The position numbers and the translations under genes are program-made. This document shows, piece after piece, positions 2,320 to 6,087 of a stretch of 6,087 bases of DNA (positions within the stretch are counted from its first letter, which is position 1; the number at the start of each line of letters is the position of its first letter). The stretch is from the sequence record NC_001330.1, one strand, 5' to 3'. Source of the stretch: Escherichia phage alpha3. Under the pieces are notes generated by a model. It searched no databases. It was given only the letters and a program-made list of their open reading frames with translations, and was not told the origin of the DNA.

Positions 2320-2476
2320 GCAGTTGATGTTTCTTACAAAAGCTGACTTTACCAATGATGATGAGAAATGGCTTAATGCCTTTGGTAATCTTCTCCGTCA
2401 GTGGTTTCAGATTGAAGACTGGAAAGGCAATCATAAAAAATTGCTTGACGATCTGAAAAAACGTGATTATCTTTGA
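2270..2476 (+). CDS. C: Protein C (DNA maturation / stage III replication switch), 68 aa from ATG 2270
   Basis: RRKFMLSSTRYYASYRATL...DDEKWLNAFGNLLRQWF matches phiX174 C (MRKFDLSLRSSRSSYFATF...DEEKWLNMLGTFVKDWF). AGGAG (2258-2262) with a 7-nt spacer. The track's GTG 2240 start (GTGA overlap with the A stop) is the alternative. Confidence 0.85.
   Translation: MLSSTRYYASYRATLTKQLMFLTKADFTNDDEKWLNAFGNLLRQWFQIEDWKGNHKKLLDDLKKRDYL
2445..2473 (+). promoter_or_regulatory. Candidate pD promoter inside the 3' end of gene C
   Basis: -35 TTGACG (2445-2450), 17-nt spacer, -10 TATCTT (2468-2473). It sits at the position homologous to the phiX174 pD element (TTGACA...TACTATCT) and about 30 nt upstream of the D start. 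Confidence 0.45.
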
Positions 2477-2956: not shown

Positions 2957-3031
2957 ATGAAGAAAGCACGTCGTTCTCCTAGTCGTCGTAAAGGTGCTCG
3001 CCTCTGGTATGTAGGCGGTTCTCAGTTTTAA
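2957..3031 (+). CDS. J: DNA-binding/packaging protein J, 24 aa, highly basic
   Basis: MKKARRSPSRRKGARLWYVGGSQF, starting one base after the D stop (TGAtATG). This is the short J form typical of G4/alpha3-type phages. Not in the ORF track because of its size. Confidence 0.85.
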   Translation: MKKARRSPSRRKGARLWYVGGSQF

Positions 3032-3035
3032 TTAT

Positions 3036-3054
3036 GGGCCCTTCGGGGCCTTTT
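3036..3054 (+). terminator. J-F intergenic hairpin with UUCG tetraloop plus T-run (TJ-like terminator / RNA stability element)
   Basis: GGCCC (3037-3041), TTCG loop, GGGCC (3046-3050), with a flanking G-U pair 3036/3051, then TTTT (3051-3054). Confidence 0.5.
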
Positions 3055-3066
3055 AAGGAAATTCAA

Positions 3067-4362
3067 ATGTCTAATGTACAAACTTCCGCTGAACGTGAAA
3101 TTGTTGACCTCTCTCATCTTGCCTTTGACTGTGGCATGCTTGGTCGTCTGAAGACTGTTTCATGGACTCCTGTTATCGCTGGCGATTCCTTTGAGCTTGA
3201 TGCTGTTGGTGCTTTGCGTCTTTCCCCTCTGCGTCGTGGTTTAGCTATTGATTCTAAGGTTGATTTTTTCACCTTCTACATTCCGCATCGTCATGTTTAT
3301 GGCGACCAGTGGATTCAGTTTATGCGTGATGGTGTTAATGCTCAGCCTCTGCCTTCTGTTACTTGCAATCGCTATCCGGACCATGCTGGTTATGTAGGTA
3401 CTATTGTTCCTGCAAATAACCGTATTCCTAAGTTTTTGCATCAGAGCTATCTGAACATTTACAATAACTATTTCCGTGCCCCGTGGATGCCTGAGCGTAC
3501 CGAGGCCAACCCGTCTAATCTTAATGAGGATGATGCTCGTTATCGCTTCCGTTGCTGCCACCTTAAAAATATTTGGTCTGCTCCGCTGCCTCCGGAAACC
3601 AAATTGGCTGAAGAAATGGGTATTGAAAGCAATTCCATTGATATTATGGGTTTGCAAGCCGCTTATGCGCAGCTTCACACTGAGCAGGAGCGTACTTACT
3701 TTATGCAGCGTTACCGTGATGTTATCTCCAGCTTTGGCGGTTCAACCTCCTATGATGCCGATAACCGACCGTTGCTTGTTATGCACACCGACTTCTGGGC
3801 TTCCGGTTACGACGTTGACGGTACCGACCAATCTTCCCTTGGACAATTCTCTGGTCGAGTCCAGCAGACGTTTAAACACTCAGTGCCGCGATTCTTCGTG
3901 CCTGAGCATGGTGTCATGATGACTTTGGCTCTGATTCGCTTCCCGCCTATCAGTCCGTTGGAGCACCATTATCTTGCTGGTAAGTCTCAGTTAACCTATA
4001 CCGACCTTGCTGGCGACCCGGCTCTGATTGGTAACTTGCCTCCTCGCGAGATTAGTTATCGAGATCTGTTCCGTGATGGTCGTTCTGGTATTAAGATTAA
4101 AGTTGCCGAGTCTATTTGGTATCGTACTCATCCTGATTACGTTAACTTTAAGTATCATGATTTGCATGGATTCCCGTTCCTTGATGATGCGCCTGGTACA
4201 TCTACTGGTGATAATCTTCAGGAAGCTATCCTTGTTCGTCATCAGGACTATGATGCTTGCTTCCAGTCTCAGCAGTTGCTACAGTGGAACAAACAGGCTC
4301 GCTATAACGTTAGTGTTTATCGCCATATGCCTACTGTACGTGATTCCATTATGACCTCTTAA
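3067..4362 (+). CDS. F: Major capsid protein F, 431 aa
   Basis: Extensive similarity to phiX174 F (MSN.QT.AER...DLSHL.F..G..GRL.T...TPVIAGDSFE.DAVGALRLSPLRRGLAIDS.VD.FTFY.PHRHVYG...QLLQWN...RDSIMTS). AAGGA (3055-3059) with a 7-nt spacer. The upstream in-frame ATG 3034 used by the track lies inside the hairpin and is not the start. Confidence 0.95.
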   Translation: MSNVQTSAEREIVDLSHLAFDCGMLGRLKTVSWTPVIAGDSFELDAVGALRLSPLRRGLAIDSKVDFFTFYIPHRHVYGDQWIQFMRDGVNAQPLPSVTCNRYPDHAGYVGTIVPANNRIPKFLHQSYLNIYNNYFRAPWMPERTEANPSNLNEDDARYRFRCCHLKNIWSAPLPPETKLAEEMGIESNSIDIMGLQAAYAQLHTEQERTYFMQRYRDVISSFGGSTSYDADNRPLLVMHTDFWASGYDVDGTDQSSLGQFSGRVQQTFKHSVPRFFVPEHGVMMTLALIRFPPISPLEHHYLAGKSQLTYTDLAGDPALIGNLPPREISYRDLFRDGRSGIKIKVAESIWYRTHPDYVNFKYHDLHGFPFLDDAPGTSTGDNLQEAILVRHQDYDACFQSQQLLQWNKQARYNVSVYRHMPTVRDSIMTS

Positions 4363-4367
4363 TTCAT

Positions 4368-4383
4368 GGGCCTTCGGGCCTTT
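4368..4383 (+). terminator. F-G intergenic hairpin with UUCG tetraloop plus T-run (TF-like)
   Basis: GGCC (4369-4372), TTCG loop, GGCC (4377-4380), then TTT. Near-duplicate of the J-F module. Confidence 0.45.
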
Positions 4384-4395
4384 AAGGATTTATCT

Positions 4396-4959
4396 ATGTA
4401 TCAGAATTTTGTCACTAAGCATGATACTGCCATTCAGACTTCCCGTTTTTCTGTTACTGGCAATGTTATTCCTGCTGCTCCTACTGGTAATATTCCTGTC
4501 ATCAATGGTGGTAGTATTACCGCTGAGCGTGCTGTTGTTAATCTTTACGCTAATATGAATGTTAGCACTTCTTCTGATGGTTCTTTCATTGTTGCTATGA
4601 AGGTTGATACTTCTCCGACTGACCCTAATTGTGTCATCTCTGCTGGTGTTAACCTTAGTTTTGCTGGTACCTCATACCCGATTGTTGGTATTGTTCGTTT
4701 TGAGTCTGCTTCTGAACAGCCTACTTCTATTGCTGGTAGTGAAGTTGAGCATTACCCAATTGAAATGTCTGTTGGTTCTGGTGGTGTTTGTTCTGCTCGC
4801 GATTGTGCTACTGTTGATATTCATCCTCGTACTTCTGGTAATAATGTTTTTGTTGGTGTGATTTGTTCTAGCGCTAAATGGACCTCCGGTCGTGTGATTG
4901 GTACCATCGCTACGACTCAGGTTATTCATGAATACCAAGTCCTTCAGCCGCTTAAATAA
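4396..4959 (+). CDS. G: Major spike protein G, 187 aa
   Basis: The N-terminus [11 protein letters not shown] and the C-terminus (RFESAS...[12 protein letters not shown]...VLQPLK) are similar to phiX174/G4 G (MFQTFISRHN...RFESS...PRTPGNNVYVG...CLQPLK). AAGGA (4384-4388) with a 7-nt spacer. The track's upstream ATG 4366 lies in the hairpin. Confidence 0.92.
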
Positions 4960-4984
4960 AAGGCTGCCGCACTCCCGGTTAGAT

Positions 4985-5069
4985 GCCTGCCCAGTGTAGG
5001 GCAGACCGAGCCGTACGGAGATACCCGATAAACTAGGAACGTGGAAGGCGTTAGCCGCCTTCCCTCCTG
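4985..5069 (+). other. Putative complementary (-) strand origin: primase (DnaG) recognition region in the G-H spacer
   Basis: The 135-nt G-H spacer contains a 6-bp hairpin CTGCCC/GGGCAG (4987-5004, loop AGTGTA), the palindrome CCGTACGG (5011-5018), and an 8-bp hairpin GGAAGGCG/CGCCTTCC (5043-5063, loop TTAGC) followed 4 nt later by CTG (5067-5069). G4-type origins are hairpins with a 5'-CTG-3' primer start on their 3' side. Confidence 0.45.
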
Positions 5070-5094
5070 CTAAGCCCAAAAAGGAGTTACAGCG

Positions 5095-6087
5095 ATGTTA
5101 GGTGCCGTTGTTGGTGGCATTGCCTCAGCCTTAGCTAGTGGTGCCGCTTCGAAATTATTTGGAGGCTCTCAGCGTGGAGTTTCTGTTATGCAGCAAGGTG
5201 CCGAGTCTGCCGGATTGACTAACGGCGGCGGCGCCATTTCTATGGATAATGACCAAGGTATTCAGTCTGCTATTCAAGGCTCGAATGTTCCTCCTGCTGG
5301 TCAGCTTCCTGAGTCTCAGAACTCTGGTGTTATGGCTGATGCTGGTAACATGCTTCGTAATGCTGGAAAGTCTTTGCTTGACGGAACTATTCAGGCTGGT
5401 TCTGATAAAGTTAAGCAAGCACTTATTGATAAGTTGATTGGAGGTAATGATGCTAAAGACCGAGGAAAGGCAACCCGCGATTACTTGGCTGCGGCCTTCC
5501 CTGAGCTCAACCCATGGGAACGTGCTGGAGCTGGTGCTTCCACTGCCGGGTTAGAATCTTCTGCTCAGAATCAGCAGAAAGAGATGCTGAAGATGCAATT
5601 GGATAATCAGAAAGATATTGCAAAAATGCAGATGGATAACAATTTGCAGATTGCTGGTATTCAGTCTGCCACTTCTCGTCAAAATACGAAGGATTCTGTT
5701 TATGCCCAGAATGAGATGCTTCAGTATAATCAACGTGAGTCGCAGGCACGCGTTGCGTCTATCCTCGCCAACACTGACCTCACGACTAAACAGGCTACCC
5801 ATGAAATCATGAGGATGGCCCTTACCCGTGCTCAGGAGACTGGTCAGCATTTGACTAACTCTCAGATTATGGCTTTGGAGAAAAAGGTCTATGCAGAAAT
5901 TGGAAAAATTCATCAAGATACTCAAAACTCTCGCTATGGTAGCTCTCAAGTTACTGCCGCTGCGAAAGATGTTACGAATATGATTACCGATGCCGCTTCA
6001 GGTGCTTCTGATTGGGTTTCTCAGCAGTGGAATTCGTTCTTTAAGGATGGTAAGTCCAACGGTATTTCCCTTAATACCAGAAAATAA
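5095..6087 (+). CDS. H: Minor spike / DNA pilot protein H, 330 aa
   Basis: Glycine-rich hydrophobic N-terminus MLGAVVGGIASALASGAASKLFGG (phiX174 H: MFGAIAGGIASALAGGAMSKLFGG), a conserved central block (RDYLAAAFPEL, IAGIQSATSRQNTKD, VYAQNEML) and the C-terminus KDGKSNGISLNTRK. AAGGAG (5081-5086) with an 8-nt spacer. The stop is the last codon of the window. Confidence 0.95.
   Translation: MLGAVVGGIASALASGAASKLFGGSQRGVSVMQQGAESAGLTNGGGAISMDNDQGIQSAIQGSNVPPAGQLPESQNSGVMADAGNMLRNAGKSLLDGTIQAGSDKVKQALIDKLIGGNDAKDRGKATRDYLAAAFPELNPWERAGAGASTAGLESSAQNQQKEMLKMQLDNQKDIAKMQMDNNLQIAGIQSATSRQNTKDSVYAQNEMLQYNQRESQARVASILANTDLTTKQATHEIMRMALTRAQETGQHLTNSQIMALEKKVYAEIGKIHQDTQNSRYGSSQVTAAAKDVTNMITDAASGASDWVSQQWNSFFKDGKSNGISLNTRK

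Follow-up and report, generated by a model that had tools for sequence, protein, structure and literature searches.

The J-F and F-G spacers of Escherichia phage alpha3 each contain a short GC-rich hairpin capped by a UUCG tetraloop and placed between a stop codon and the next Shine-Dalgarno sequence (SD). By analogy with phiX174, these hairpins most likely belong to a group already described, the leaky hairpins that terminate transcription and stabilise late mRNA in Bullavirinae. We consider it probable that both act as leaky rho-independent terminators and as 3'-end stabilisers, the alpha3 equivalents of T_J and T_F. The duplicated F-G copy and a probable missing base in the old sequence are modestly new. 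The analysis addresses the hairpins, their conservation and covariation, the similarity of the modules, the gene starts and the origin homologue directly, and takes termination, stabilisation and stoichiometry from homology to phiX174.

The window, which is the whole stretch of DNA that was analysed (6087 nt), comprises the entire genome of Escherichia phage alpha3 (Microviridae, Bullavirinae, Alphatrevirus). Over the queried stretch it matches the resequenced alpha3 genome, DQ085810.2, at 99.9% identity. Genome-wide the two differ at only six places, one in the F-G stem and the remaining ones at window positions 192/193 (an indel), 335, 338, 2449 and 3544. Gene coordinates were transferred from the DQ085810.2 annotation (offset +1).

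Architecture of the two modules and the starts of F and G

The features of the two spacers and of the surrounding genes are as follows.

2445..2473, + strand: pD-like promoter upstream of D (promoter scan), with no further promoter-like site on the + strand ahead of F, G and H
2957-3031, + strand: gene J, with its stop codon at 3029-3031, 4 nt before the J-F hairpin
3034..3036, + strand: upstream ATG in the J-F spacer, not an initiation codon and without an SD; its G is the outermost stem base
3036..3051, + strand: J-F hairpin GGGCCC-UUCG-GGGCCU, arms 3036-3041 and 3046-3051, loop 3042-3045
3051..3054, + strand: U-run TTTT after the J-F hairpin, read from the sequence
3055..3059, + strand: Shine-Dalgarno AAGGA of gene F, 7 nt before the ATG at 3067
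3067..4362, + strand: gene F, major capsid protein, 431 aa (DQ085810.2 annotation, PDB chain start)
4360-4362, + strand: F stop codon, 5 nt before the F-G hairpin
4366..4368, + strand: upstream ATG in the F-G spacer, not an initiation codon; in frame with G in the window version only
4368..4381, + strand: F-G hairpin GGGCC-UUCG-GGCCU, arms 4368-4372 and 4377-4381, loop 4373-4376
4381..4383, + strand: U-run TTT after the F-G hairpin, read from the sequence
4384..4388, + strand: Shine-Dalgarno AAGGA of gene G, 7 nt before the ATG at 4396
4396..4959, + strand: gene G, major spike protein, 187 aa (DQ085810.2 annotation, PDB chain start)
5095-6087, + strand: gene H (DQ085810.2 annotation)

The architecture described by the sequence-only reading, an ATG, a stem closed by C(UUCG)G, a T-run and AAGGA 7 nt before the start codon, is present as stated in both spacers, with the UNCG tetraloop and its closing pair at 3041-3046 and 4372-4377. 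The J-F stem consists of five G-C pairs and an outer G-U pair, and the F-G stem, as it stands in the window, of four G-C pairs and a G-U pair. Based on RNA folding, the bare hairpins have energies of -11.7 (J-F) and -8.4 kcal/mol (F-G), with z-scores of -3.0 and -2.5, and in a context of ~45 nt the z-scores are an unimpressive -1.4 and -1.2. Short GC hairpins are badly tested by shuffling, and we therefore relied on comparative evidence instead. The motif CTTCGG occurs at only two sites on the + strand, each within a hairpin whose stem has 4 or more Watson-Crick pairs, and at least two hairpins of that kind were found in 0.35% of 2000 dinucleotide shuffles. A chance origin of the pair was rejected based on these shuffles and on the gapped match between the spacers. 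A cmscan search of the whole window against Rfam (E<=1) returned no relevant family match, the single hit being at chance level and elsewhere. No description of the alpha3 hairpins was found in the accessible literature.

The two modules had been called near-identical, and this is correct once single-base indels are allowed: 28 of 32 columns of the alignment between the J-F and F-G spacers are identical, with four 1-nt gaps. Without gaps it does not hold, the pair being 76% identical over 25 nt, which is not outstanding and was ranked among chance repeat families (D10). When the J-F spacer is aligned locally, with gaps, to the rest of the genome, the F-G spacer at 4360-4388 comes out first, with a score of 40. 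Shuffled controls scored 19.1±2.0 (maximum 28, none of 300 reaching the observed value), and the second-best real match scored 19. The idea of a repeated cis element is thus borne out, as neither module has a better match in the genome than the other, and in close relatives they form the top direct repeat. The copies in L018, L019 and L064 have 25 identical bases in common and agree at 94% over 31 nt, and they are the best direct repeat of the genome. The L018 copies lie at 1463-1493 and 2793-2823.

The F-G stem differs between the two versions of the alpha3 sequence. In DQ085810.2 (positions 4378-4383, corresponding to 4377-4381 of the window) the 3' arm carries one extra C, giving GGGCC-ttcg-GGCCC, in which the outer G-U pair is converted to G-C and all five pairs are perfect. 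The same GGGCC/GGCCC stem is found in the closest relatives, L017-L019, L064, phiK, St-1 and Lilleven. Because these relatives have the longer GGCCC arm, the window, which is the older sequence, probably lacks one C in the F-G hairpin. When the extra C is included, translation from the ATG at 4366 gives MGLRAL-stop, in a frame other than that of G.

Mechanically called open reading frames in the window, 3034..4362 and 4366..4959, begin at the upstream ATGs. The sequence-only reading warned that these in-frame codons mislead ORF callers, which is true of both frames in the window. For F-G the frame is lost in DQ085810.2, so that this artefact depends on the sequence version. It further placed the true starts of F and G at the downstream ATGs, in agreement with the deposited alpha3 capsid chains (PDB 1M06, 1M0F and 1RB8), in which F starts MSNVQT and G starts MYQNF; all homologous capsid chains have the same start. 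If the upstream ATGs were used, the hairpins would encode N-terminal extensions (MGPSGPFKEIQ- for F and 10 residues for G). That both codons are in frame in the window and open the longest ORFs would agree with such a use, which is nonetheless effectively refuted: in addition to the chain starts, neither ATG is preceded by an SD, the ATG has no counterpart in WA13, NC3 or phiX174, in Lilleven it lies in another frame and a stop follows it, the G codon is out of frame in resequenced alpha3, and spacer lengths differ by non-multiples of 3. In phiK, St-1 and Lilleven the AUG of the F-G spacer lengthens the stem through pairing with CAU. We conclude that neither the ATG at 3034 nor that at 4366 is used and that both are there incidentally. 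For annotation, the ORFs from 3034 and 4366 are artefacts, and the true starts are 3067 for F and 4396 for G.

Conservation, covariation and possible duplication among relatives

Both spacers were read in 24 further genomes (from GenBank, IMG/VR and metagenomes), with J-F only for Mimer, L029, L062 and L065. Scans of viral contigs with the F protein and the F alignment returned mostly genomes already in the set, and a scan with a pattern of the SD and the F N-terminus drew in unrelated cyanophage-like contigs. A metagenome scan with a J C-terminus pattern yielded four contigs, none of them at odds with the other genomes. Among alphatreviruses, all 20 genomes with both spacers read have a C(UUCG)G hairpin at each junction. 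At J-F, a hairpin was seen without exception among the Bullavirinae-type genomes that we examined: phiX174, G4, ID52, ID2-like genomes, L029, Mimer and the four metagenome contigs. The J-F hairpins outside the alphatreviruses include the following.

phiX174: GGGGC-UUCG-GCCCC
ID2-like genomes: GGGGC-UUCG-GCCCC
ID52: GGGGGC-UACG-GCCCCC
G4: GUGGGAC-CGCG-GUCCCAC
Pectobacterium phage Mimer: GGGGC-GAAA-GCCCC
L029: GGGGG-CUUGU-CCCCC
L065 (metagenome contig NFYY01001704.1): AGGGGC-UUUG-GCCCCU, with the stem intact

The order of J stop, hairpin and F SD is the same in all genomes. The SD TAAGGA is kept in nearly all relatives, phiX174 having TGAGGA and L065 GTAGGAG, and a U-run straight after the stem is retained in most. 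The F-G spacers of phiX174, G4, ID52, the ID2-like genomes and L029 are 80-136 nt long and contain origin-type hairpins and no UUCG module. Mimer, in which F and G are just ~10 nt apart, is the exception among the non-alphatreviruses.

To evaluate covariation we used 23 distinct hairpins, aligned on the loop and scored over a defined 7-pair helix. Across them 84.5% of cells are paired, compared with 71.2±2.3% after shuffling (0 of 500), and the covariation score is 0.338 compared with 0.121 (0 of 500), with its peak at slide 0, the true register. Anchoring the alignment on the loop and the structure favours structure, and the raw sequences leave little other reading. Pair 7-14 is C-G in 11 hairpins, G-C in 11 and A-U in 1, and is unpaired in none; pair 6-15 is G-C in 20 and C-G in 3. 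St-1 has A-U where others have G-C. In NC28 and MG945254 the stem GGGGC/GCCCC has flipped to GGGCC/GGCCC within an otherwise WA13-like F-G flank, a change that the flanking sequence marks as a genuine double substitution. Stems not maintained by compensatory changes in relatives had been named as an outcome that would refute the reading; compensatory changes do maintain them in the J-F and F-G spacers, and the reading therefore stands against this test.

The loop is usually UUCG, with UACG (of the UNCG family), GAAA (GNRA), CGCG, UUUG and CUUGU as the others. The loops of L065 (UUUG), L029 (CUUGU) and G4 (CGCG) indicate that UUCG is favoured and not obligatory, and the variety across stable families implies that what is at stake is the stability of the loop and not a binding sequence. 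A comparable layout was seen in L035 and L058, two IMG/VR contigs unrelated to microviruses, which have a CUUC-UUCG-GAAG hairpin, an A-run, a GGAG SD and a 34-aa ORF (MSNLQTRASR...). The order of hairpin and then SD therefore recurs in unrelated phages.

The J-F element is taken to be ancestral because it is present throughout the subfamily, and the F-G copy is restricted to alphatreviruses. Stem type is commonly the same at the two junctions within a genome: WA13-type genomes have GGGGC twice, and the alpha3-type genomes and NC28 (L012) have GGGCC twice. MG945254 (L014) has mixed stem types. This agreement within genomes suggests exchange between the copies or between co-infecting phages, and the sequences as a whole suggest duplication followed by occasional exchange. 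Duplication is not strictly separable from convergence combined with sequence exchange, since the functional constraints common to the two sites (stop codon, GC stem, UUCG, U-run and SD) give no clean separation. A broader reading, which we regard as tentative, is that the series of stop, hairpin, U-run and SD is a copyable 'punctuation cassette' that was duplicated from J-F to F-G in alphatreviruses, where the landing site would be the origin junction of other microviruses and the copies would have been homogenised by intragenomic or inter-phage exchange. As part of the same tentative proposal, the F-G copy may also clamp the end of F onto the G SD and so couple translation of F and G, both of them 60-copy proteins.

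Function of the hairpins and alternative readings

Host RNA polymerase makes microvirus mRNA in the sense of the viral strand. Both modules would accordingly be RNA hairpins in the polycistronic late mRNA, in + strand sense. The GC stem capped by C(UUCG)G would fold on transcription and, with the short U-run, would lead a fraction of RNA polymerases to release the transcript, the remaining polymerases continuing into F, then G, then H. Transcript abundance would step down D,J > F > G > H, which would fit 240 D, 60 J, 60 F, 60 G and 12 H. Terminated RNAs would end in a very stable hairpin acting as a shield against 3' exonucleases, and in read-through RNAs the hairpin would lie immediately upstream of the Shine-Dalgarno of the next gene. 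The F-G copy would be an alphatrevirus-specific paralogue of the ancestral J-F element, or an exchanger with it.

Based on the promoter scan, the only promoter-like sites on the + strand are at 696 (pA) and 2445 (pD), with none after 2473. Without a promoter-like site after pD, expression of F, G and H needs read-through, hence the sites must be leaky. The pA-like promoter at 696 (TTGACA-18-TATATT, 11/12) is followed at once, within 696-761, by a hairpin at 726-750 and TTTTT at 751-755, which ends 4 nt before the ATG of gene A (759). The same order of promoter and then terminator is found at pA-T_H of phiX174 (bioRxiv 10.1101/2020.03.05.979765). Just 3' of the H stop (6087, wrapping to 1), positions 26-66 form a 14-pair hairpin followed by six T's. 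This is the sole canonical intrinsic-terminator call on the + strand in the terminator scan, and it is probably a strong terminator that closes the late transcription unit. The long H-A region (1-758) contains small ORFs, among others 24-209, 206-433 and 523-699, and its counterpart in phage Lilleven has annotated hypothetical proteins.

The accepted model of phiX174 transcription comprises three promoters and places a weak rho-independent terminator in each of four spacers: T_J in J-F, T_F in F-G, T_G in G-H and T_H in H-A. T_J, T_F and T_G each stop just 20-40% of transcription, and termination efficiency is uncorrelated with folding energy (Logel and Jaschke, bioRxiv 10.1101/2020.03.05.979765). 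Zhao et al. 2012 (PMC3335065), citing Hayashi and Hayashi, give a read-through of T_J of ~68% of transcripts at 37 °C and state that transcripts ended at T_J are the most stable and that disrupting the T_J structure speeds mRNA decay. The stepwise drop of transcripts agrees with the protein copy numbers of 240 D, 60 F, 60 G and 12 H (PMC3003669). A 2026 preprint on saturation mutagenesis of phiX174 lists the same four hairpin terminators, with overlapping ribosome binding sites, and finds only 14.6% of terminator substitutions detrimental (bioRxiv 10.64898/2026.07.25.740675), which implies a modest fitness effect in the laboratory. In one model fit to phiX174 RNA-seq the termination strength of T_J is near zero (PMC11527146), and the share of termination may therefore be small relative to stabilisation.

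The earlier proposal of a terminator or mRNA 3'-end stabiliser gains support from the alignment of the J-F hairpin with the T_J spacer of phiX174. Both alpha3 modules have a GC-rich stem-loop on the mRNA-sense strand (five G-C pairs and one G-U at J-F, four to five G-C pairs at F-G), 4 nt past the J stop and 5 nt past the F stop. A canonical U-tract of at least 5 U in 8 is absent from the two sites, which have UUUU and UUU, and the consensus terminator scan calls neither. An approximate terminator score, comparative only since it combines an approximate formula with modern energies, is near the threshold for the alpha3 modules and near 0 for J-F, at least as high as that of phiX174 T_J and far below that of a strong terminator. 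The U-runs and the score fit a weak terminator and not a canonical one. We keep the terminator reading, despite the short U-tract, because of the homology to phiX174 T_J.

The hairpins might instead be only barriers of stability and processing, which, once an endonuclease has cut further downstream, hold up 3'-to-5' exonucleases (PNPase, RNase II) and thereby give the D-J, D-F and D-G segments differing half-lives, with no useful termination. We consider this unlikely, but it has more in its favour than the short U-runs and the missing terminator call: the near-zero fit of T_J to phiX174 RNA-seq (PMC11527146) and the absence of correlation between folding energy and termination efficiency in phiX174 point the same way, and extra-stable tetraloops (UUCG, UACG, GAAA) would suit a role in stability. 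Set against it are the step measured by qPCR and RNA-seq across T_J and T_F in phiX174, 20-40%, or 32% at 37 °C rising to 66% at 42 °C, and the U-run kept right after the stem in most relatives. A mainly translational role, in which the hairpin fixes the structure just upstream of the SD as a standardised leader, appears less probable still. At F-G, the hairpin would on this account nucleate a helix of the G SD with the final codons of F (ACCUCUUAA), so that G is translated mainly when the ribosome finishing F opens the helix, which would couple F and G 1:1. Such coupling would suit two proteins required in equal numbers, and the distances from hairpin to SD (3-4 nt) and from SD to ATG (7 nt) are constant. 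The predicted probability of pairing between the G SD and the F stop region is 0.55-0.77 in phiK, St-1, WA13 and NC28 and ~0.3 in alpha3. The extra helix contributes just ~1-3.5 kcal/mol, however, and coding and the SD already constrain its two strands, which makes conservation of the helix uninformative and leaves no possible covariation test. The counterpart pairing at J-F is weak and AU-only, and in phiX174 and G4 the G gene is expressed behind long F-G spacers of unrelated sequence. Within 4354-4390 of the window, the end of F (ACC UCU UAA; ACCUCUUAA) resembles the 16S anti-SD, and in the folding model it pairs with the G SD (UUAAGGA), enclosing the UUCG hairpin; such predicted pairing could couple G to F translation.

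As the viral strand has the sense of the mRNA, the same hairpins could also form in single-stranded viral DNA and act there in complementary-strand priming, in packaging or protein J binding, or in SSB exclusion, and the F-G spacers of phiX174 and G4 do bear origin structures at the level of DNA. The Mimer loop GCGAAAGC is also a very stable DNA mini-hairpin. We nevertheless regard a DNA-level role as very improbable. Spacer G-H of alpha3 (4957-5097) has 85% column identity to the F-G spacer of G4 and is also homologous to that of ID52, and both of these F-G spacers carry an annotated complementary-strand origin and primer site. By this homology the origin cassette, with its downstream SD, is at a different gene junction in alphatreviruses, G-H and not F-G, which places the (-) origin at neither hairpin. 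A (-) strand origin role of the hairpins was rejected on this ground. In addition, the loops come from families whose stability is specific to RNA (UUCG, UACG), G-U pairs close both alpha3 stems, and the place, always between a stop codon and an SD, is that of a transcription-unit feature. The predicted DNA hairpins, at -6.0 (J-F) and -4.2 kcal/mol (F-G), are about half as stable as the RNA hairpins.

On the leaky terminator and stabiliser reading, the Bullavirinae as a whole appear to have kept the chain of weak hairpin terminators by which phiX174 fixes its late-gene transcript ratios, and to have built it from extra-stable tetraloops. With the complementary-strand origin at another junction, alphatreviruses use the same module twice. 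These results are useful for gene-expression models and for synthetic refactoring of microvirus genomes, and raise no new question.

Comparison with known hairpins and with phiX174

C(UUCG)G and other UNCG hairpins have reportedly been described in phage intercistronic regions (Tuerk and colleagues in 1988) and in E. coli intrinsic terminators (d'Aubenton Carafa and colleagues in 1990). Our own literature search for UUCG hairpins as intercistronic terminators found nothing relevant. The alpha3 hairpins resemble this class in the UUCG loop, the C-G closing pair and the short GC stem between cistrons, with UACG and GAAA as variants. UNCG hairpins are a structural class and not a homologous family, and membership is by itself mute on termination versus stabilisation.

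The position of the F-G hairpin, after F and before G, is that of phiX174 T_F, and its job in stepping down transcription is presumably the same. The two have no sequence relationship. The F-G spacer of phiX174 is 110 nt long, and its T_F hairpin overlaps a PriA-type complementary-strand origin, whereas the alpha3 spacer of 33-34 nt holds only a copy of the J-F-type module. No homologue of the F-G module was found in the F-G spacers of phiX174 or G4, which makes it a positional analogue only. The label T_F is applied to it based on position and on its resemblance to the J-F element.

The correspondence with T_J is closer. The alpha3 J-F hairpin aligns with the only hairpin in the J-F spacer of phiX174, at the same junction and without gaps, and compensatory substitutions are found across the subfamily, as expected of orthologues. 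The function of T_J has been measured in phiX174, and the role of the alpha3 hairpin is assigned by homology. Both are placed in the order of J stop, hairpin and F SD, in spacers of 36 nt (phiX174) and 35 nt (alpha3), and both have a C(UUCG)G loop on an all-GC stem of 5-6 bp (GGGGC-UUCG-GCCCC and GGGCCC-UUCG-GGGCCU). One to two stem pairs are flipped in alpha3 relative to T_J, and a continuous series of relatives with compensatory changes joins the two hairpins. The U-run is better in alpha3 (UUUU) than in phiX174 T_J (UUACUU).
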